A stretch of DNA of 64,000 nucleotides from Acidimicrobiia bacterium (lineage in GTDB: Bacteria; Actinomycetota; Acidimicrobiia; Spongiisociales; ZC4RG35): positions 10,343-74,342 of the forward strand of contig CBDCGI010000005.1 of assembly GCA_965216725.1 (NCBI GenBank), given 5' to 3'. The position numbers and the translations under genes were made by a program. Below, piece after piece: positions 6,178 to 16,159 of this stretch (its first letter is position 1; each line of letters begins with the position of its first letter). The notes below the pieces were generated by a model. It made no database searches. It was given only the letters and a program-made list of their open reading frames with translations, and was not told the DNA's origin.

Positions 6178-9100
6178 TCACTTGTCCAAAGACGCCCGGA
6201 GCGTCAAACACCGGTTCGCCTCATCCTCATGGCCAATTCGCTCGAAGGTCTCCGCGGCCTCGGTCAAACACAGGTAGGCCTCCTCTTTGAGCCCTGCCGC
6301 CCGCTGAGCTTCTCCGAGATCGCGCTTAGTGCAGGCGATGTTGAGGCCGAACTCGCCAAAGGCGGCGACCACCGGCAGGGACTCGTTCAGTAGCGACACC
6401 GCAGACTCGGCGTCACCGCCAGCCAGAGCCGCTTGGGCTCGCTCGGTTCCGACCAACGCCAGGCCGATGCGGTCGGCTCGTTGCCGACACAACTCTGTGG
6501 CCTCCTCGAGATAGCTCGCGGCCTCATCCAATCGTCCGCGATCCGCCAGAACACGGACAATGCTGATGAGGCTGGCAACGACCCCTCGCAAGTGGCCGAT
6601 TCGTCTCCTCGAGTTGAGACTTCGCATCAGGTGATGCTCAGCCGCATCGAGGTCTCCGCTCTCGAAATCGAGTTGGCCCCGCCACGACAACGCAAGAGCC
6701 TGACCACTTTCGTCTCCGACTTCCTCGTAATGTCGAAGGGCTGCGTCCAGCAACGAGGCGACCTGATCTAACCGCCCAGACAGCCTCTCGATGTTCGCCC
6801 TAGCCACAGCCACGGAGGCGCTGGCATGACGGCCGATTCCGTCTTCCAGAGAAACGAATGTCTCGCACCACATGTACAAGGTTTCGCCTCTACGTCTGGT
6901 CGGAGCCCAAGCACCCAGCGTGTAGATGTCGAAGACACCAGGAGTCTCGAGGGTCGAGAGGAGCGTCTCGGCTCGATCGAGAAATGCTCCAGCTTCGTCA
7001 TAGTCGAGTCGGAATGTGGCGAGCATGGCCAGGCAGAGATATGCGGAGACCTCGAGCGCATCATCATCAACGCCACGCGCCAGGTCACGGGCTTGTTTGA
7101 ACAAGGCACCCGCGATCTCGAATTCGTCGCGATCGAATGGTCCTATCGCTGCGAGTAGCAGTGCCCGGCCAACCCGCGAATCGTCTGCCAGGGCCGTCGC
7201 CTCTGCGGCGCTCAGAGCGGCGAAACGCTCCATCTCCTCGAATCCCTTCCATCGAAAGGCAACCGCGGAGGCTGCCAACAGCAGGTCTGCCCGATCAGCC
7301 GACGGTCCAGATGCGTGCTCGAGTACACGCTCGATCAACTCGAGCCCTTCACCTAGATGGGCCAGCCAGAGCCAATAGGGCCACAGTCGCGACGCGAGAC
7401 GAACGGCAAGGCTGGGACTCGTGGCCAAGAGATGGTCGACTGCAGGGCCAAGTTCATCGCGTACCGCCGAGAGACGCGCGACCAGTTCAGCGCGGTCCGA
7501 CGCATCGGTCATCCCGCCGGATTCTGACAATCGGAGCAACCACTCGGCGTGGGAGTCCCTCGTTTCTCGGAGAGCACCCTGGTGTCGCAAGGAGTCGAGG
7601 CCGTACTCTCTCATCGTCTCGAGAAGGCGATAGCGGAACTGTCCGTCGGCCGTGATAGCGACCATCGACTTCTCGGCCAGACGACTGAGAAGAGAGGCAA
7701 TCTCACCCTGGATGTCCGACTGCGCTATCGACTGGGCTGCCTCCAGATCAAATGGACCGTTGAACACCGACAGCCTCAGAAACAAAGACTGCTCCGGTTC
7801 TGAAAGCAGATCGAAACTCCAATCGACGGTGGCCTTGAGGGTCCGCTGGCGACTCAAGGCAGTTCGCGCCCCGTCTACCAAAAGCCCCAAACGGTCATCG
7901 AGATTCTTCGCAACGTCGGCGACTGACAAGGTAGGAACGCGTGCCGCAGCCAGTTCGAGCGCCAAAGGCATACCATCGAGCCGGAAACACACCTGAGCAA
8001 CCTCGGTCATGTTTTCTTCGCTGACTTCGAAGTCTGGTTGCACGGCCTGGACCCGCTCACGAAACAACGTGATCGCGTCGAACCGATACATCTCGTCTGC
8101 GGGCGGCAGGTCAGTCGGGTCGGGTACGCGCAACGACGAGACTCTGCGAACTATCTCTCCCGGAACTCGGATCGGCTCTCGACTCGTGGCGAGCACAGTC
8201 AATCCGGGACAGCTCTCCAGGAGGTTTGCCATGGCTACGGCCACGCCATCAGCAACGTGTTCGCAATTGTCCAATATCAGAAGCACTTCGTCCTCGGCGA
8301 TTCGGTCGGCGACAGCCTCGACGGCGGTTCTATCAGGCCCGCGGCGAACGTCCAGAGCCCTCATCAGCTCCGCGGACACCTCATCTGCCCGTGCCACCGG
8401 GGCAAGTTCGACGAGGAACACACCACCACTGAAGTCGTCGAGATGCCTTCGGCCCGCTTCAACGGCCAGCCGAGTCTTTCCGCATCCTCCGGGACCGACC
8501 AGTGTCACCGTCCGACCACTAGACAGCGCCTCTCCGAGTTCGCGCAGCTCCTTCTCTCGCCCGACGAAACTCGACAAGGGAGCACCGATATTCGTCGCAG
8601 GTCGCGACCTGGAAGACGCTCCCGGCTCGACCGGTAACAAGCGGCCCATCGCGATTTCGTCACGAAGACTCTGCGACGTCTTGTCGGGTGCAACGCCCAA
8701 TTCGTCTTGCAGGACCCGCTCCAGCACGTCGTACTGACGCGCAGCAGCGCTCCTTTCGCCCGCCTTGGCGTAGAGCCGCATCAGCTCTCGATGAGCTGAC
8801 TCGTTGGTCGGATCCTCCACCAGGATCTGGCGCAAGAGGTCCGCCGCCGCGTTCGCCTCACCAGAGTCTTCGAGCGCGTTGGCCAGCCCACGCATGAGGT
8901 CCAGATTCAAGCGGTGAAGGATCTCCCGTCGCCCAATTGCCCAATCTGAATATCGATCATCCGGCAGGAGTTCTCCTGGGTAGAGATTCAGAGCGGTCTC
9001 GTAGTCCAATCTTGTCTGACTAACCAGCGCGTGACGCGCCGCAGACTCGAACTCCTCGACGTCCACCGAGAGCCCTCCGCCAGGGCACAAGACCAACGTC

Positions 9101-9393
9101 TCCGCCTCCAAGGACAGAAGGGCACGCCCGTCGCCACCCGCCGAATCGATCGCCCGTCGGGCGGCATGCAGAACCTGATACAGATTGTTGGCTGCTGCAT
9201 CCATATCCCTATCGGGCCACAGAAGATCAAGAACTTCGTCGCGCTGCTTTCGCCAACCACGCGAAAGGGCAAGCAGTTTGATTAGATCCCTGGCCTTGCT
9301 CAGACGCCACACCGATGGCTCGACGGATCGGTCGCCAACCCAGACTTGGAAGTCGCCGAGAAGCACAACACGGAGTTGGCTGTTGTGACCCAT
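6178..9393 (-). CDS. AfsR/SARP-like multidomain regulator: OmpR-type winged helix, BTAD, NB-ARC-like P-loop NTPase and TPR repeats.
   Basis: N-terminal LRVVLLGDFQVWVGDRSVEP...RDEVLDLLWPD (OmpR/SARP DNA-binding domain). BTAD segment LYPGELLPDDRYSDWAIGRREIL. Walker A TLVGPGGCGKTRLAVE. Long C-terminal TPR-like helical repeats. Confidence 0.8.
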   Translation of the reverse strand: MGHNSQLRVVLLGDFQVWVGDRSVEPSVWRLSKARDLIKLLALSRGWRKQRDEVLDLLWPDRDMDAAANNLYQVLHAARRAIDSAGGDGRALLSLEAETLVLCPGGGLSVDVEEFESAARHALVSQTRLDYETALNLYPGELLPDDRYSDWAIGRREILHRLNLDLMRGLANALEDSGEANAAADLLRQILVEDPTNESAHRELMRLYAKAGERSAAARQYDVLERVLQDELGVAPDKTSQSLRDEIAMGRLLPVEPGASSRSRPATNIGAPLSSFVGREKELRELGEALSSGRTVTLVGPGGCGKTRLAVEAGRRHLDDFSGGVFLVELAPVARADEVSAELMRALDVRRGPDRTAVEAVADRIAEDEVLLILDNCEHVADGVAVAMANLLESCPGLTVLATSREPIRVPGEIVRRVSSLRVPDPTDLPPADEMYRFDAITLFRERVQAVQPDFEVSEENMTEVAQVCFRLDGMPLALELAAARVPTLSVADVAKNLDDRLGLLVDGARTALSRQRTLKATVDWSFDLLSEPEQSLFLRLSVFNGPFDLEAAQSIAQSDIQGEIASLLSRLAEKSMVAITADGQFRYRLLETMREYGLDSLRHQGALRETRDSHAEWLLRLSESGGMTDASDRAELVARLSAVRDELGPAVDHLLATSPSLAVRLASRLWPYWLWLAHLGEGLELIERVLEHASGPSADRADLLLAASAVAFRWKGFEEMERFAALSAAEATALADDSRVGRALLLAAIGPFDRDEFEIAGALFKQARDLARGVDDDALEVSAYLCLAMLATFRLDYDEAGAFLDRAETLLSTLETPGVFDIYTLGAWAPTRRRGETLYMWCETFVSLEDGIGRHASASVAVARANIERLSGRLDQVASLLDAALRHYEEVGDESGQALALSWRGQLDFESGDLDAAEHHLMRSLNSRRRIGHLRGVVASLISIVRVLADRGRLDEAASYLEEATELCRQRADRIGLALVGTERAQAALAGGDAESAVSLLNESLPVVAAFGEFGLNIACTKRDLGEAQRAAGLKEEAYLCLTEAAETFERIGHEDEANRCLTLRASLDK

Positions 9394-9478
9394 TTGGAGG
9401 ACCCTATTTTGTCGGCTGCCACCGAGCCGAGGGATTGCGAGAGCACCTCGCAGAAAATGAGGGGGTCACGGCACGAAT

Positions 9479-9688
9479 CTTGTGGGCCCTCTGTGGAGCG
9501 CGAGAATCAACCAGCGCCTCAATCGGCTCGTCGGACGCGGTCAGAAATCGCCCTGACCAGAGTGTTTAGTGGAGCTGACGGGATTTGAACCCGTGACCCC
9601 CTCGTTGCGAAAGATGCGGTCATAGCCCTCTGACCAGGGGGAACGATCTGCAATTGCGGCGTTGTGGGGCGGCTGTGGGCCGAGCGAC
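9479..9688 (-). repeat. Composite element B: R1 motif (9479-9506), CTGACCAG box, a tRNA-Ala 3'-half-like pseudo-tRNA (about 9568..9645, minus strand) whose 5' half is replaced by a hairpin, then R2 motif (9661-9688).
   Basis: The segment TTCGCAACGAGGGGGTCACGGGTTCAAATCCCGTCAGCTCCAC is identical to the 3' half of the tRNA at 16083..16159 except for the terminal CTA (tRNA has CCA). The upstream ~130 bp also aligns with the region downstream of the real tRNA (15955-16082). Confidence 0.65.
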
Positions 9689-9875: not shown

Positions 9876-10559
9876 CTGAAACCGAGAACAATCTTCGTTG
9901 ACGAGAGTGGCGTGGGTGGTCAAGGACCCTTCATCGTCGTCGGCGCTCTCAAGTTCGCTAGGGACTACGGCTTGGTCACAAACGAACTTGTCACCTTGCG
10001 TGACAAGGCCAACTGGAGATCCGAAGCCCACTTTTCCAAGATCAATCGGACCACCGAGCATCTCTACCGGGAGACCATCAAGATTGTCGCCGAATCCGGT
10101 GCCCGCTTTAGGTACGTGGTTCACGATCGGCGGCAACCGAACCTCGACTTTGAACGCCATAAGGAACCCTGGAAGCGTGACGCTCAACTGGCGATTCGCC
10201 TCCTACGGTCGGCCACATGGACCGGCGAGACAGTCACGTCCATCATCGACTACGTGTCAACGCCGCGCTCGGTTAATTACGAGAACTACATCCACGTAGC
10301 TGTAAATCGGCTGCTCGGGGAGGAACAGGTTGTCTCTGTTCTCAGAATGGACTCCAAGACCTGTTGGGGCCTCCAACTCGCTGACATCCTCACTGGAGCG
10401 GTAGCGCACCAATACATGCAGTCAGTCAAGTCCGAGGTCAAGGCGACGACGCCAAAAGGGAGGGTCGCTGGGTTCGTCGCCGAGACCTACAACCTTGAGT
10501 CACTGATCATGGCTGATTCCAAGAAACTCAAAATGATCGGACTACCAAAGAAGGATTAA
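9876..10559 (+). CDS. DUF3800-family protein. The start codon is unresolved: the conserved N-terminus lies upstream of the first canonical start.
   Basis: Manual translation upstream of the GTG at 9912 gives TIFVDESGVGGQGPF, the (I/Y)(F/I)(I/V)DESG signature of DUF3800. C-terminal LQLADILTGAV matches the second DUF3800 signature. No ATG, GTG or TTG lies between the in-frame stop at 9846-9848 and the motif (candidates: CTG at 9876, ATC at 9891). G+C is visibly lower than in the neighbouring genes. Confidence 0.55.
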   Translation: MKPRTIFVDESGVGGQGPFIVVGALKFARDYGLVTNELVTLRDKANWRSEAHFSKINRTTEHLYRETIKIVAESGARFRYVVHDRRQPNLDFERHKEPWKRDAQLAIRLLRSATWTGETVTSIIDYVSTPRSVNYENYIHVAVNRLLGEEQVVSVLRMDSKTCWGLQLADILTGAVAHQYMQSVKSEVKATTPKGRVAGFVAETYNLESLIMADSKKLKMIGLPKKD

Positions 10560-10879: not shown

Positions 10880-11158
10880 TCAGGAGCAGTTCTGAAGGAA
10901 TTGCTCGATCGCCGCGTCATCCTCAAACGTCGAAGCCAACTCGGACGCTCGTTTGATTGGTCCCTTGACCTCATTTGGGGCGACCTCATATAGAGCGGCC
11001 ATCGCCTCTTGCCTGCTCTGGTCCCGCACCGTCTCGTACGTCTGACAGAACACACCGATCTCCTCGACGGTCGCTGGCAACGGAGCCGTGGTCGCAGTGT
11101 TGGGAGCGCCAGCACACGCAGCCAACACCACCGCCATCAAGACCATGTGTCGCCTCAT
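10880..11158 (-). CDS. Small secreted lipoprotein, about 92 aa.
   Basis: N-terminus MRRHMVLMAVVLAACAGAPN: signal peptide with LAAC lipobox. The ATG at 11158 overlaps the stop of the upstream gene (ATGA). The long N-terminal extension in the track ORF is read-through and is not supported. Confidence 0.5.
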   Translation of the reverse strand: MRRHMVLMAVVLAACAGAPNTATTAPLPATVEEIGVFCQTYETVRDQSRQEAMAALYEVAPNEVKGPIKRASELASTFEDDAAIEQFLQNCS

Positions 11159-11964
11159 GAGGACAGTTTGTGACGCAAGCTCCGGATGATTCGTATCACG
11201 AGTGCAAGTCCGGCAATCGCCCAGCAGGCCAACATTCCTTGAATTGCGAACCCCGCCAGAGAGTCGGCCGTCTCGACCGACCAAGGCAGTGCGATCGGGT
11301 TTGGAATCGAGCCGACGAGCATCGGATGAAACAGGGCGATTATCCCGAGCGCTGCTGCCACGACGTAGGTGAATCGGACTGCCCAGCGCCAACCTCTCGA
11401 AGGGAGGCGGCCGTTGGGGATCGTCATCAAGAAACGAGGAACGATCACTACCAGCAGAAGGATCCACGTAACCGAACCAACTAGCGCCGCGAGCCGACCG
11501 CCGGGCAGACTCCCAGGTTCGATCATCGTCCCCCTTACCGCATACGCACCGGCAACCGCACCGACCAAGTCGACTAGTGGACCGAGAATCAGAAGCCATC
11601 CGATCTGATTCCCCCACCTGAGCACCAGTAATGCTCCAAGAGCAGCGATTGCAGTCAGCACCACCGGATACGCAAATCCACCGTGATCATCGAATGGGAC
11701 ACATTCCACCTGCCCTGAAGCGACGAGCTCCCCGGCGTCGGAACAGACAGGCTGGCCGCTGTAAACAAGCTGCTCGTAAGCCTCGACGTCGAAGTCACTT
11801 GAGCTGACGTAGCTCGGGATCGGTTCATCGGATAGACCGGACTCGAGCACCGTCAGCACCAACCCAAGGGCCAATACCAGAAAGACCAAGCCGTAGATCC
11901 GGACTCGCCGTCTGCCGTAGGTAGTCGGCCTGGCATGGGGTTCCACTGTTGTGTTCGAATTCAC
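11155..11964 (-). CDS. Membrane protein that is a stand-alone paralog of the transmembrane sensor domain of the histidine kinase at 12074..14269.
   Basis: LLLVVIVPRFLMTIPNGRLPSRGWRWAVRFTYVVAAALGIIALFHP aligns with HK VVLGPLLLLTFPNGRLVSTRWRWVPGVALLSGALLLVQLAHP, and the flanking helices also align. The GTG at 11964 is preceded by AAAGGAGGAGAAGGA. Confidence 0.55.
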   Translation of the reverse strand: MNSNTTVEPHARPTTYGRRRVRIYGLVFLVLALGLVLTVLESGLSDEPIPSYVSSSDFDVEAYEQLVYSGQPVCSDAGELVASGQVECVPFDDHGGFAYPVVLTAIAALGALLVLRWGNQIGWLLILGPLVDLVGAVAGAYAVRGTMIEPGSLPGGRLAALVGSVTWILLLVVIVPRFLMTIPNGRLPSRGWRWAVRFTYVVAAALGIIALFHPMLVGSIPNPIALPWSVETADSLAGFAIQGMLACWAIAGLALVIRIIRSLRHKLSS

Positions 11965-12073
11965 TCCTTCTCCTCCTTTGGAGACGTCATTCGAACGTAA
12001 GGTCCGATCCGGCCAACCGACACATGGCCTACCCCACATCTGATCACCGTGGAGACACCACCCGGCTTTAGGT

Positions 12074-14269
12074 ATGCCAACGGTGTCTCCAACGCCCCGT
12101 GGTTGGCATGATTGGGCGATGACCCGGGCCTGGATGGTTTTAGTGGGTGTCCTGATCGCTGCCGTGGCCACGCTCGTCCTCACGCTGGGAACCTCGGACA
12201 CGCGAGCACCTGTCGTCGCCTTCGAAGATTTCACCTATCAGGAGGCCGAGCGGACCCTGAGCGAGGTTCCACTACTGCTGGCAGACGACCCGGCGCTTGA
12301 CGTTGAAGACTTGGATGGTCGATACCCGCTCCTGACTGCCATCGAAGGGCCGGAGCCTGCAGGCGTGGCATGGGCAGCCCTCGGCGTTCTGACCGCACTT
12401 CTTGGGGTTCTTGCCTGGGTCCGGGCATCCAACCGGTTCGGCTGGTATCTGATGGCGGTTGGAATCGTGGCGGTGGCGTTTGGAATGGCGCGCGCTGTCT
12501 CCGATTTCGCAGTCCACAGAAGCCCTACGGAATCGGTCTTCGGATCCCAGGCGGCTTTTGCACTCGCAGACACTCTGTGGATTCCCTTGGGTGTCGTCTT
12601 GGGGCCGCTTCTCTTGTTGACGTTTCCCAATGGCCGGCTTGTCTCGACGAGGTGGCGCTGGGTTCCAGGGGTGGCGTTGCTGTCCGGTGCGCTTTTGTTG
12701 GTTCAACTGGCTCATCCCCGTCGTTACGACGGACGTGCCCTGGCTCCATACCCAGCTCCGAATCTCGACATCCTCGAGCCTCTCTTCAATCTGGGGATCT
12801 ACCTATGGATGCTGGCCTTGGCGGTCGCCGGTTTGTCTCTGATAGTGCGGTTCTTCCGATCGGCCGGCTCAGAGCGGGACCAGCTCAAGTGGGTTACGTA
12901 TGGGCTCGTGGTCTCCCTAGCTCTGCTCGCCTTGTCAGACCTGGCGCAGCGATTCGGCGGTGATCCAGCCATCTGGGGGCCCGTTGCCAGTGCCGGCTTC
13001 CTCTTCTTGTTACCCCTCACGTTTCTCTTCTCGATCTTTCGCTACCGACTTTTCTCTATCGACATCGTGATCAACCGCACAGTGCTGTTCGGTGTCCTCT
13101 CTCTGCTCGTGGCATTGACATACGTCGCTGCCATCGCAGTGGCTGGATCGCTGGTAGGAGCCGGAAATGTGACGTCAGCTCTCATTGCGATGACCGTCAC
13201 GGCCTTCGCGTTCGAGCCACTGCGAGTGAGGACCGTGTCCCTCTTCGACCGGCTCGTCTGGAGGAGGCGCTCGGAGCCAGGCGACGCGCTGACCGAAGTA
13301 TTCACCACAATCGAAGACCGAGACGGAGATGAGGGCATGACGACCGTCGTCGGTGCCGTTGCTGAGGCTACCAATGCCCGCTACGTGGCGCTTTGGATCA
13401 ACAATGGGGAAGACATTCGGCTGTTGGTGACAGCTCCTTCGGACGTTGAACAGTCGCTGGACGACGGGTGGGACGTCGTCGCACCAGTTGGCGACACCGG
13501 AGCTCTCGGGGTCCGCATGTCACCCGGCGACCGGCTCCGGCGACAGGAGAGGAGACTTGTCCACGACCTGGCGGGGCTCGCTGCGCTCCTCCTCAAGAAC
13601 AACCAGTTGCGGTCAGATTTGGACGGCATAGTCGCTGAGCTCGAAACCAGGCACGGCGAGCTCATAGCCGCCGAAAGACGTCTGCAGGATGTCGTCGATC
13701 GGACACGAGCGGATGTGGAGCGCGACCTCCACGACGGGGCACAGGCGAGAGCTGTTGCCCTTGCCTCGGCCATCGGATTGGCCCGGGTCGCCCCCACCTC
13801 CACAGACCCGCAGCAACTGGCTTCTCTAATCGAGAACGCAGAAGAGGAGGTCGTTTCCTTCGCAAACGGCCTGTACCCCGCCGCTCTTGGCGCGAGCGGA
13901 CTCGAAGGAGCGATTCGGGGTCAAGCTCGCCTCCTCCTGCCGGACGCAGTCGTCCAAGTGGAAGCTGACGGGGTACCCCAAGACATCGCGGCAGTTGCGT
14001 ACCTGGTGGCCAGCGAAGCCATCTTGAACGTGGCCAAGCACGCCGGGTCGTCGCAAAACCCACCAAGGATCAGATGCGCGACGGATGGTTCCGAGCTCAG
14101 CATCGTTGTCAGCGACGACGGACCAGGCTTCTCGGTTCCTGCGCGGTCGACTGGCTCAGGGCTCAAAAACATCAGGGAGAGAGTCGAAGCCCTGGAGGGC
14201 TCCCTTCGTGTTGACTCGACGCCCGGCTATGGAACCAACCTCCTAGCCACAATCCCTGTGACACCATGA
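12074..14269 (+). CDS. Sensor histidine kinase: polytopic N-terminal sensor with FPNGRL / RWRW motifs, a HisKA_3-type DHp domain and an HATPase_c domain.
   Basis: About 350 aa of membrane region, then ERDLHDGAQARAVAL (HisKA_3 H-box), then ILNVAKHAGS...VSDDGPGF...GSGLKNIRERVEALEG (N, G1 and G2 boxes). The start could instead be the internal ATG at 12119. Confidence 0.8.
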   Translation: MPTVSPTPRGWHDWAMTRAWMVLVGVLIAAVATLVLTLGTSDTRAPVVAFEDFTYQEAERTLSEVPLLLADDPALDVEDLDGRYPLLTAIEGPEPAGVAWAALGVLTALLGVLAWVRASNRFGWYLMAVGIVAVAFGMARAVSDFAVHRSPTESVFGSQAAFALADTLWIPLGVVLGPLLLLTFPNGRLVSTRWRWVPGVALLSGALLLVQLAHPRRYDGRALAPYPAPNLDILEPLFNLGIYLWMLALAVAGLSLIVRFFRSAGSERDQLKWVTYGLVVSLALLALSDLAQRFGGDPAIWGPVASAGFLFLLPLTFLFSIFRYRLFSIDIVINRTVLFGVLSLLVALTYVAAIAVAGSLVGAGNVTSALIAMTVTAFAFEPLRVRTVSLFDRLVWRRRSEPGDALTEVFTTIEDRDGDEGMTTVVGAVAEATNARYVALWINNGEDIRLLVTAPSDVEQSLDDGWDVVAPVGDTGALGVRMSPGDRLRRQERRLVHDLAGLAALLLKNNQLRSDLDGIVAELETRHGELIAAERRLQDVVDRTRADVERDLHDGAQARAVALASAIGLARVAPTSTDPQQLASLIENAEEEVVSFANGLYPAALGASGLEGAIRGQARLLLPDAVVQVEADGVPQDIAAVAYLVASEAILNVAKHAGSSQNPPRIRCATDGSELSIVVSDDGPGFSVPARSTGSGLKNIRERVEALEGSLRVDSTPGYGTNLLATIPVTP

Positions 14270-15060
14270 CATCCCAGAGCCTTCCCGCCACGGCACGCAT
14301 ATTGATCTCCAGTGCTAGCGGCCTCGTCGCCGTGACAGTCTTCTCTCTCATGGCGCTGCCGTTCGGCTTCGCAGGGCTCACCGAGCCGACACCAGCGCCC
14401 ATCCTCTTGGGCGCTGCAATTCTGACAACTGTCATGCCACAGGTTCGCAGGTCTATGGGGCGGGTCATTGAACGGAATCCAAGATGGGCGAGCGGCGACT
14501 CATATGAGCTCATGGCAGCCGGATCGCGCCTCAAGCCTGAGACCGGGCCCAATGCTGTGCTCAGCGAACTGGCTGAGCTTGCCCGAAGGTCTGCGGCTGG
14601 CAGTTCAGCCAAGGTCCAATCCGAAATCGGTGAAGCAGAATCCGGCACTCCCAGCTCAACCGCGTTCCGAACCTCCGTGAACCACCTAGGCCGGGAGATC
14701 GCTTCAATAACGGTAACGAGTTCTAGCCCTCTGAAGCCTCAGCAGCGAAAGAGAGTGGAGCAGCTGGCATTGTCAGTCGGAGTGGTTGTAGCCAATGCTG
14801 TTGTCATCGGCAGCATCGAGGAGAGAATCTCGGAGTTGGATCGCACCATCGAACTCATCACGATGAGAAGAAGGTCTGTCGTCGAAGCGGAGGCAGCGGA
14901 AAGGCAACGGGTCGCCAGCGATGTTGTCGCCGGGACCGAGCCCATGTTTCGACAACTTGAGTCATCCATAGGGGCCGGGGACTTCGGCGACGCCGCAGAC
15001 ACGTGTGACCAGCTCATAGTGTTTCTCCGTGGCTTCTCGACGGCCATGCGGGAGCAATGA
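14266..15060 (+). CDS. Histidine-kinase-like protein with 2 TM helices, a juxtamembrane segment and a DHp-like region. It has no phospho-acceptor His and no ATPase domain.
   Basis: The start overlaps the HK stop (ATGA). SSPLKPQQRKRVEQLALSVGVV...EAEAAERQRVASDVVAGTEPMFRQL aligns with HK SPGDRLRRQERRLVHDLAGLAAL...RTRADVERDLHDGAQARAVAL. The H-box His is replaced (ASDVVAG vs ERDLHDG). Confidence 0.5.
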   Translation: MTSQSLPATARILISSASGLVAVTVFSLMALPFGFAGLTEPTPAPILLGAAILTTVMPQVRRSMGRVIERNPRWASGDSYELMAAGSRLKPETGPNAVLSELAELARRSAAGSSAKVQSEIGEAESGTPSSTAFRTSVNHLGREIASITVTSSSPLKPQQRKRVEQLALSVGVVVANAVVIGSIEERISELDRTIELITMRRRSVVEAEAAERQRVASDVVAGTEPMFRQLESSIGAGDFGDAADTCDQLIVFLRGFSTAMREQ

Positions 15061-15752
15061 CGATACGTGTACTGGTAGCGGAGGATGATCTCCTGGTTCG
15101 TCGCGGCATCGTCGCCCTCCTAAGCACACAGGACGACATCGAAATCGTCGCCACAGCCGAAGACCTGGAAACGCTCCTCTCTGCCGTCTCCGAGCACCAG
15201 CCAAGTGTCGTGCTCACTGACATCAGGATGCCGCCGAGCCACACCGATGAGGGGATACGAGCCGCCGTCACCCTTGCGGACCGCCATCCAGGTGTGGGTG
15301 TTGTTGTCCTGAGCCAGTATGACGACCCCGAGTACGCAGTGAGGCTGCTCGAAGACGGGAGCGAGGGGCGCGGCTACCTCCTCAAAGAGAGGGTCTCGAA
15401 CGTGGCACATTTGGTGGAAGCCCTCCAAAAAGTGAATCGAGGCGGTTCGTACGTAGACCCCAGGGTGATCGATCGCTTGGTTGACGCGAAGAGGTCTGAG
15501 CCATCCGGCATCAAGTGGCTTACTCCGAGGGAAGGTGAAGTCCTCGCCGAGATGGCACAAGGGAGGGACAATGCAACGATCGCGGACACTTTGTCGATCA
15601 ACATCCGGTCTGTCGAGAAACACATCAACTCGATCTTCGCCAAGCTGGGCCTGACCGAAGAGAGCGGCATCAGCAAGCGAGTCGCTGCCGTTCTCTCCTA
15701 TCTCAATGCAGCCGACGATGCTCCAGGACACAACAAGGCTGACACCCCCTGA
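15057..15752 (+). CDS. NarL/FixJ-family response regulator: REC domain plus LuxR-type HTH.
   Basis: VLVAEDDLLVRRGI...VVLTDIRMP receiver domain. C-terminal LTPREGEVLAEMAQGRDNATIADTLSINIRSVEKHINSIFAKLG LuxR HTH. Start overlaps the previous stop (ATGA). Confidence 0.85.
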   Translation: MTIRVLVAEDDLLVRRGIVALLSTQDDIEIVATAEDLETLLSAVSEHQPSVVLTDIRMPPSHTDEGIRAAVTLADRHPGVGVVVLSQYDDPEYAVRLLEDGSEGRGYLLKERVSNVAHLVEALQKVNRGGSYVDPRVIDRLVDAKRSEPSGIKWLTPREGEVLAEMAQGRDNATIADTLSINIRSVEKHINSIFAKLGLTEESGISKRVAAVLSYLNAADDAPGHNKADTP

Positions 15753-16082
15753 CGATCCGAGAAATCTCAAACGCCGGGTCACGGTCCGAAACCCGGTTCT
15801 AGGAGCCGCCGCGAGTTCTGAGGGACCAAGCCGAGTTCTCGGAGAGTGATCGGCGTCGCTTGACCGGCAGTCCCGTGGCACGCCTGCCACTTCTGGGCAC
15901 CAAGAGCTACAGCCCTCGCTCGATCGACTTCGCTCAGGAACCAGCAACTCAGCCTGACCCCCTCGCAGCAAATGAGGGGGTCAGCGATCAGATCTTGTGG
16001 GGCGCCTGTGGAGCGCGAGACTCGACCAACGCCCAATTCGGCCGACTGGGAGCCAGTCAGAAACGGTCCTGACCAGGGCAAA

Positions 16083-16159
16083 TGGTGGAGCTGACGGGAT
16101 TTGAACCCGTGACCCCCTCGTTGCGAACGAAGTGCTCTGCCAGGCTGAGCTACAGCCCC
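16083..16159 (-). tRNA. tRNA-Ala, anticodon CGC.
   Basis: The reverse complement reads GGGGCTGTAGCTCAGCCTGGCAGAGCACTTCGTTCGCAACGAGGGGGTCACGGGTTCAAATCCCGTCAGCTCCACCA: a cloverleaf with a G3:U70 pair, anticodon-loop CGC and an encoded CCA. Confidence 0.85.

Follow-up and report, generated by a model that had tools for sequence, protein, structure and literature searches.

Can the working parts of a histidine kinase exist as separate proteins beside the kinase itself, and might such proteins modulate it? The question is raised by a 4.9-kb locus (positions 10880-15752) in a stretch of 64,000 nucleotides (nt; hereafter the window, in whose coordinates all positions are given) from an Acidimicrobiia bacterium (assembly GCA_965216725.1, contig CBDCGI010000005.1, positions 10,343-74,342 of the forward strand). 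Five genes make up the locus. The minus strand encodes a 92-amino-acid (aa) lipoprotein (10880-11158) and a 269-aa sensor-only membrane protein, here called S (11155-11964). The plus strand encodes a sensor histidine kinase (HK, 12074-14269), a 264-aa kinase paralog without phospho-acceptor His or ATPase domain, here called D (14266-15060), and a 231-aa response regulator of the NarL/LuxR type (RR, 15057-15752). The original prediction had described a signalling unit accompanied by free-standing paralogs of the kinase's sensor module and of its stalk, which contains the dimerization and histidine phosphotransfer (DHp) domain, and this structural reading is borne out, for S by BLASTP and for D by a profile search. 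All open reading frames (ORFs) were present where they had been placed, and the ATGA overlaps proposed at HK/D (14266-14269), D/RR (15057-15060) and S/lipoprotein (11155-11158) were confirmed. We consider the gene content and the homologies taken by themselves to be highly probable. The whole explanation, a five-protein module whose paralogs modulate the kinase, including the mechanism proposed below, has in our estimate a probability of roughly one half.

Free-standing relatives of the kinase sensor and stalk

S corresponds to HK residues of about 16-265, and its proposed paralogy to the kinase sensor was upheld by BLASTP of HK against S, which gave 35% identity over 165 aa (E = 9e-14). With tblastn the aligned region grew to cover S residues 9-262, at 28% identity over 267 aa (E = 3e-9). 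The two proteins also align at their FPNGRL/RWRW and IPNGRLPSRGWRW motifs, and a 12-sequence alignment showed S and HK to be colinear from transmembrane helix (TM) 1 through an outer loop of ~50 aa to TM6, with the motifs N-x-x-G-W, (F/I)P(N/S)G-L-S--WRW, HP and a final Arg in common. A pair of conserved Cys and an ECVPFDDHGG motif mark extracytoplasmic loop 1 of S (~50 aa), whereas Cys is absent from the loop of HK. By hydropathy, S has 6 TM helices, HK about 10, and D a 2-TM hairpin. The AlphaFold model of S (mean predicted local distance difference test score, pLDDT, 92; predicted template modelling score, pTM, 0.87) consists of six TM helices and a small alpha/beta insert. Foldseek comparison of this model with the PDB gave no significant match, the best being generic helical bundles (E = 0.18), and in Pfam nothing significant was found, only a sub-threshold match to DUF6199 in a scan at E <= 0.1.

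S homologues were found at full length in twelve clusters (52-100% identity). In the six loci described below, S proteins are 47-80% identical to one another and HK sensor regions 39-82%, and S is only 18-27% identical to the HK sensors. The S and HK sensors thus fall into separate clades, which indicates that the duplication is old and has been retained.

Membrane modules of the S/HK type were also seen outside this arrangement, in plain HisKA_3 kinases, as free-standing proteins of 375-470 aa encoded beside thiolase and AsnC genes (L007 and L008), and fused to PDZ domains (free-standing and PDZ-fused examples: P0153, P0159, P0161 and P0163). Judged by these occurrences, the S/HK-type sensor is a reusable, uncharacterised membrane module to which no Pfam family corresponds.

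The lipoprotein encoded with S has a signal peptide, a conserved LAAC lipobox and, besides the lipobox Cys, two further conserved Cys, one in an FCxxYE motif and one at the C-terminus. Each of the six loci has an orthologue (45-76% identity) that keeps the lipobox and these two Cys, and no Pfam or NCBIfam family was matched. In one locus, present on two contigs (L004 3667-3861 and L005 1865-2059), the lipoprotein is called at 64 aa and its C-terminal part is missing, and the other four genes are intact; this may reflect a frameshift or a genuine shortening.

D is built from a TM hairpin (residues 8-33 and 43-70), juxtamembrane helices, a small domain at about 91-170, a long helix that runs into DHp alpha1 (172-236) and alpha2 (240-263), where the protein ends. 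The AlphaFold model of D is confident, and its central domain was found to have the GAF fold. A profile of the D family was compared by HMMER with 1.84 billion representative proteins and gave 97 matches. Ten are stand-alone D homologues of 223-272 aa, the protein's own cluster included (E = 2e-149 to 2e-13), and the other roughly 87, with a best E of 3.7e-9, resemble HKs and measure about 400 or 700 aa. The HK-like matches span the last TM pair through the DHp, and Pfam assigned GAF, HisKA_3 and HATPase_c domains, between them, to six sampled members. The cognate HKs of the D proteins were matched by a broader D-family profile with domain E values of 1e-6 to 1e-7. Profile methods thus connect D with HisKA_3 kinases down to E = 3.7e-9, though the pairwise comparison is insignificant.

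In hmmalign, RRRSVVEAEAAERQRVASDVVAG of D falls on the canonical ASRQRIVAAQDAERRRLERDIHDG column for column, and V221 (nt 14926-14928) occupies the His position; the second helix of D, QLIVFLRGFSTAM, aligns with alpha2 of HisKA_3 proteins (e.g. LDALRRLSRGI). Within the D family the His column holds V, I, L, R or Q, and none of the 17 members has His. No HATPase_c match and no significant Pfam family were found in D, and comparison of the D-family profile with PDB sequences gave chance matches only (E >= 0.07). The DHp helices are the best-conserved segments of D (35-39% identity among distant members, compared with 16-27% elsewhere), as would be expected if the DHp surface were the functional one.

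These results agree with the proposal that D lacks both the H-box His and the ATPase domain: His is missing throughout the family, HATPase_c is absent, and the chain stops at DHp alpha2. They modify the proposal that D is a paralog of the juxtamembrane-plus-DHp region of its neighbour. The link to HisKA_3 proteins stands by profile, but the homology is wider, taking in the TM hairpin and GAF domain, and D is not a close copy of the adjacent HK. By homology, D is a membrane-anchored pseudo-kinase stalk consisting of TM hairpin, GAF domain and complete DHp hairpin, and it combines HK homology with lost catalytic capacity, as do pseudo-histidine kinases of the RocA, DivL and FasB/C kind. By the profile matches D is nearer to other HK-like proteins, of which many lack the His, than to the neighbouring HK, and neither S nor D is, on these comparisons, a recent duplicate of that kinase.

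The nearest full-length relatives of D are enriched in His-less proteins with degenerate catalytic and ATP-binding (CA) domains. Among the roughly 87 HK-like relatives (P0053-P0139, all outside the window), which come in ~400-aa 2-TM and ~700-aa 10-TM forms, the phospho-acceptor column is occupied by His in only 34-36. In 46 of the 87 the residue is R, S, D, E, T, Q, L, I or A, and by a crude motif test 29 of these 46 also lack the N-box and G1. Such numbers suggest that membrane proteins of this His-less, HisKA_3-like kind are numerous and have gone unannotated.

The kinase and regulator beside which S and D are encoded appear fully equipped. HK consists of some 10 TM helices followed by a GAF-like linker, a DHp of the HisKA_3 type and HATPase_c. 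The last of these was recognised by Pfam (E = 2.3e-9; 38.1 bits against a 26.4-bit cut-off), and the Pfam HisKA_3 model did not reach E = 0.1 on the HK of the window. Its H-box nevertheless aligns with the canonical ERRRLERDIHDGAQQ of HisKA_3-positive kinases, the phospho-acceptor being H553 in VERDLHDG (nt 13730-13732), an H-box of the ERxRxxR(E/D)LHD type that is present in all six loci. The catalytic motifs NVAKH, DDGPG and GSGLKNI (N-box, G1 and G2) are also present. RR contains Response_reg (E = 2.8e-16) and GerE (E = 3.8e-12), both above the Pfam cut-off, with the acidic pocket and the phospho-acceptor Asp of TDIRMP conserved, and is 63-88% identical across the six loci. NCBIfam models of MctS, UhpB, LiaS, MadS and NarQ match the DHp-CA half of HK, and those of MctR, MadR and NarL match RR. 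As all these matches lie below the equivalog cut-offs, the system belongs to the NarL class without a named type. PADLOC found no defence system among the five module proteins, and RR gave only generic HTH/REC matches. Judged by its motifs, the core is an ordinary, catalytically competent NarL-class two-component system (TCS). In all six loci HK keeps VERDLHDG, the N-box and G1, and RR keeps the DD + D acidic pocket; the His-less D is thus always accompanied by a competent core TCS.

Recurrence and selection of the five-gene module

The same neighbourhood was found in other genomes, as had been asked of the original prediction. The five-gene order and its overlaps recur, giving six independent loci in all: the window, L001, L002/L003, L004/L005, L010 and L012/L013. 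L001 (with L009) is a 2.6-Mb chromosome of an Acidimicrobiia metagenome-assembled genome (MAG), L002 and L003 belong to another Acidimicrobiia MAG, and L004-L006 are metagenome contigs. A locus search with a close D alignment recovered only the Acidimicrobiia MAG chromosome that had already been found. Across the six loci D is 263-265 aa long with 27-89% identity, and S is 266-269 aa (286 aa as called in L004) with 47-80% identity; D orthologues are full-length in seven clusters (64-89% identity). The most distant loci, L010 and L012/L013, compare with the window at about 30-35% identity for D, 45-50% for HK, 53-58% for S and 63-65% for RR. D overlaps the upstream kinase gene by 4 nt wherever this junction is visible, and the junction with RR is a 4- or 8-nt overlap or a 2-nt gap. 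Furthermore, two short contigs carry a distant D homologue overlapped by 4-8 nt by its flanking genes, the downstream one being an RR in L011.

Ratios of nonsynonymous to synonymous substitution (dN/dS, by the Nei-Gojobori method) were 0.19-0.26 for D, 0.16-0.20 for S, 0.23-0.36 for the lipoprotein, 0.19-0.25 for HK and 0.13-0.16 for RR. With values of about 0.2 for each, these are real genes under selection. Whether the D ORF is a gene at all had been a point on which the original prediction could fail; its purifying selection (dN/dS about 0.2) and its homologues down to about 30% identity settle this in favour of a gene. A distant kinase with the same type of sensor (P0151, in L014) forms a plain HK-RR pair that includes neither D nor S. 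The two proteins consequently look like additions to a plain TCS, and such additions look, from the loci seen so far, to be confined to this group. A 118-aa protein encoded divergently from the L014 kinase was considered as a lipoprotein homologue and rejected, as it has no BLASTP similarity and no signal peptide.

Proposed roles of D and S

What might the added proteins do? The most likely reading, from homology and by analogy with known systems, is that D and S are built-in modulators of the kinase. D would most likely use its TM hairpin and DHp to dock on HK, giving a mixed four-helix bundle or a hetero-oligomer, and the resulting asymmetric or inactive kinase unit would set the balance between kinase and phosphatase activity. 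The GAF domain of D could supply a second, cytoplasmic input. S and the lipoprotein would most likely form an extracytoplasmic/membrane co-sensor that contacts the homologous six-helix bundle of HK. A pseudo-kinase partner is the most economical role for D because the parts for dimerization and signal transmission are kept, both catalytic elements are lost, and the gene is coupled to those of HK and RR.

Several observations weigh against this proposal. Direct BLASTP of D against HK was not significant (E = 0.15), and hhalign of D and HK profiles (8- and 4-sequence) gave a probability of 0.4%, a failure that follows from the shallowness of both profiles (effective number of sequences, Neff, about 1.5). 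The weak similarity of D to its neighbour also means that heterodimer compatibility is unreadable from sequence. Between distant loci D diverges faster than HK (about 30% compared with 45-50% identity), which could mean that its partner is bound more loosely or is another protein. The FPNGRL/RWRW motif that S and HK have in common is predicted by the positive-inside rule to lie in a cytoplasmic loop and is thus not obviously a ligand site. Finally, all loci come from uncultured MAGs or metagenomes and are known from sequence alone.

D might instead act on the regulator. The DHp hairpin of histidine kinases is the docking surface for the RR. A D homodimer could serve as a membrane-tethered decoy or scaffold for RR or phosphorylated RR, without forming mixed dimers with HK. 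That this hairpin is the best-conserved part of D, that the D gene has translational coupling on both sides, with HK and with RR, and that D is too divergent from its cognate HK for an obvious common dimer interface all speak for such a role. However, the retained TM hairpin and GAF domain, colinear with a kinase stalk, would be superfluous for a simple cytoplasmic decoy, and the residues after the H position have no conserved likeness across loci to the specificity region of the cognate HK; we regard this alternative as unlikely. A role closer to the kinase would be that of an obligate partner, with HK and D forming a heteromeric kinase of the Fas type in which HK is inactive without D. The HK-D-RR order with its 4-nt overlaps is strictly kept in each locus, which suggests stoichiometric co-production, and a precedent exists in FasB and FasC, kinase-like proteins that heterodimerise and of which some domains are dispensable (PMC12675982). 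Yet each Fas partner gives His or ATPase, and D gives neither; moreover, HK carries every motif needed to function as a homodimer, and a related kinase exists in the plain HK-RR arrangement of L014. An obligate heteromer is on these grounds rather improbable.

For S and the lipoprotein, the alternative is that they are not a co-sensor but an output regulated by RR from the shared divergent promoter region, or an independent membrane module. Kinase-independent roles are indicated by the occurrence of the same membrane module as a free-standing protein with no adjacent kinase and in PDZ fusions, and the conserved intergenic motifs described below could be an RR operator. Against this, the S-lipoprotein pair is divergently linked to HK in all six complete loci despite their differing neighbourhoods, and S is a truncated 6-TM version that matches the N-terminal half of HK. 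Output and feedback co-sensor are in any case compatible, SaePQ being both (PMC5083920), and we hold a role as output alone or as an independent module to be improbable too. The loss of every catalytic element and the lack of a Pfam match in D would also fit decaying duplicate remnants, pseudogene fragments or mis-called ORFs. But both D and S have intact frames of near-constant length in six loci at 27-89% and 47-80% identity, their dN/dS of 0.16-0.26 equals that of the kinase, both AlphaFold models are confident, S has a strong ribosome-binding site, and the genes are translationally coupled. The conservation data effectively exclude gene decay.

The literature was searched for precedents, and no TCS with accessory free-standing paralogs of both its own sensor and its DHp stalk was retrieved, in agreement with the earlier impression that the layout is undescribed. 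The module is real and conserved, is undescribed as far as the literature searches show, and is conceptually close to known accessory-protein systems, among which every step of the proposed mechanism has a precedent. The pseudokinase RocA of group A Streptococcus is an inert, HK-homologous membrane accessory whose N-terminal TM domains suffice to bind CovS and to shift CovR phosphorylation (PMC7028121, PMC7380576), and so parallels both D, as a pseudo-kinase, and S, as a TM-only protein. Compared by architecture, however, RocA is a single full-length pseudokinase, encoded apart from covRS, that keeps its His and a degenerate ATPase, whereas here the task is apparently divided between two truncated paralogs encoded within the locus, D has neither His nor ATPase, and the kinase is of the HisKA_3/NarL class. 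In the FasB/FasC/FasA system two tandem kinase-like genes precede one regulator, as here; FasB and FasC heterodimerise, and FasC reduced to TM plus DHp and FasB reduced to DHp plus ATPase are each sufficient (PMC12675982). Those truncations are laboratory constructs and the Fas partners each bring one catalytic element, in contrast to the naturally truncated D, which contributes neither His nor ATPase.

An actinobacterial kinase that still affects signalling after loss of its CA domain is ChrS of Corynebacterium glutamicum: a frameshifted, CA-less ChrS heterodimerises with the paralogous kinase HrrS and alters signalling (PMC9491836). It is laboratory-evolved and keeps its His, whereas D is ancient, conserved and His-less and shares an operon with its presumed partner. 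RetS of Pseudomonas aeruginosa inhibits GacS by binding to the DHp and breaking up the canonical GacS dimer (PMC8498467), so that one kinase-family protein acts on another through the DHp, as proposed for D; RetS is, however, a complete hybrid kinase whose gene lies in another part of the genome, and D is a minimal His-less stalk. In Streptomyces coelicolor AbrC1/AbrC2/AbrC3, two tandem kinase genes stand before one NarL-type regulator (PMC9739842). By analogy, an HK-HK-RR arrangement of this kind is a plausible ancestral state of HK-D-RR, although both AbrC kinases are catalytically active.

For S and the lipoprotein the nearest parallel is SaePQ of Staphylococcus aureus, in which the lipoprotein SaeP, the membrane protein SaeQ and SaeS form a ternary complex that switches on the phosphatase activity of SaeS (PMC5083920). 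There too a lipoprotein and a polytopic membrane protein are encoded beside a TCS, as S and the lipoprotein are, divergently from HK, in six loci. SaeQ is, however, no paralog of SaeS, whereas S is a paralog of its own kinase's sensor, and neither S nor the lipoprotein matched a Pfam or NCBIfam family that would place it with SaeQ or SaeP, so that the likeness is by analogy alone. Among actinobacterial kinases, the lipoproteins CseA (CseA-CseBC) and LpqB (LpqB-MtrAB) are known to act with their TCSs (PMC9739842). A third component of the LiaF/VraT type, as in LiaFSR-like HisKA_3 systems, is not indicated, as no LiaF/DUF2154-type domain was found in D or S by Pfam at E <= 0.1.

A bolder version of the proposal, which we advance tentatively and think doubtful as a whole, is a naturally 'disassembled' kinase that signals through hard-wired hetero-oligomers. 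One HK protomer and D would form an obligatorily asymmetric DHp bundle acting as a half-of-sites kinase/phosphatase switch gated by the GAF domain of D, and the S-lipoprotein pair, possibly redox-sensitive through its conserved Cys pairs, would compete with or complement the sensor bundle of HK. If true, this would amount to a new regulatory logic in which accessory proteins are born by domain-level paralogy of the kinase itself, and the locus may be no more than the first glimpse of a much larger group of His-less HisKA_3-like proteins in Actinomycetota.

A handful of pathogens have provided the known accessory proteins and pseudo-kinases that adjust histidine kinases, mostly singly and through genetics. 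In the present locus, a compact natural arrangement that evolution has kept stable, each of the two accessory membrane proteins can be recognised as a paralog of a defined part of the kinase, the sensor bundle for S and the TM-GAF-DHp stalk for D. The locus also leads to a sizeable family of HisKA_3-like proteins that lack the His and are unannotated. It suits the question of how DHp and TM bundles select their partners, and could show a physiological use of asymmetric dimers (one His, one ATPase) and an origin of regulators by domain duplication. With five genes in 4.9 kb, it is small enough for synthesis and reconstitution.

Intergenic region and genomic surroundings

The divergent region between S and HK (11965-12118) contains three motifs that are invariant in the six-locus alignment, CGTG (12048-12051), CACCAC (12056-12061) and ACGGTGT (12080-12086), in otherwise diverged sequence. 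On one side S starts at GTG 11964, preceded by the strong ribosome-binding site AAAGGAGGAGAAGGA. On the other, HK has three alternative starts, ATG 12074 (731 aa), GTG 12083 and ATG 12119 (716 aa). Most HK orthologues are called from the equivalent of ATG 12119, and GTG 12083, inside ACGGTGT, is the called start in L012. Five of the six loci conserve a 'WHDW' peptide in frame, and L010 has an in-frame stop. The motifs may be an operator, or may be tied to the start codon or to translation control. An RNA hairpin formed by CACCAC...ACGGTGT over the HK start was also considered and is unsupported (RNAalifold -4 kcal/mol, no compensatory pairs). A promoter and terminator scan gave nothing above the shuffled expectation.

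A tRNA-Ala(cgc) at 16083-16159, the only Rfam match in the whole window, lies beyond RR. A degenerate direct repeat of ~180 nt (9441-9621 and 15956-16137, about 80% identity, range 79-82%) contains the 3' half of this tRNA and 127 nt of downstream flank, and brackets the module together with a DUF3800 gene. The locus had been assigned to a tRNA-associated segment. That description holds insofar as the tRNA 3'-half repeat brackets it, but no integrase or GC shift was recognised with it, and the same tRNA-Ala neighbourhood is found in two relatives. Within the bracketed segment no integrase was identified in the ORF list or in a Pfam scan of part of the ORFs, and the DUF3800 gene (9912-10559) was, beyond the five genes, the one ORF with a family match. 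The GC content of the segment is 0.58-0.62, compared with about 0.61 elsewhere. In L001 and L002 the module likewise adjoins tRNA-Ala and MoaC/MoeA genes; in L004, L010 and L012 it lies in other neighbourhoods. When 28 nt from the repeat's tRNA portion served as an exact probe, no second copy was found in L002 and no match at all in L001. The module is not demonstrably recent island cargo, and the tRNA-fragment repeat may reflect an old integration or duplication.

Just beyond the tRNA-fragment repeat, 6178-9393 on the minus strand encodes a 1071-aa BTAD/SARP-type regulator with a STAND NTPase (AAA_16) and TPR repeats, which is absent at this position in L001-L003. The DUF3800 gene, flanked by the tRNA-fragment repeat on one side and the module on the other and missing from this position in L001 and L002, encodes on the plus strand a 215-aa protein (Pfam E = 1.4e-5) that also matches the PADLOC candidate defence family PDC-M04A (E = 1.2e-11).

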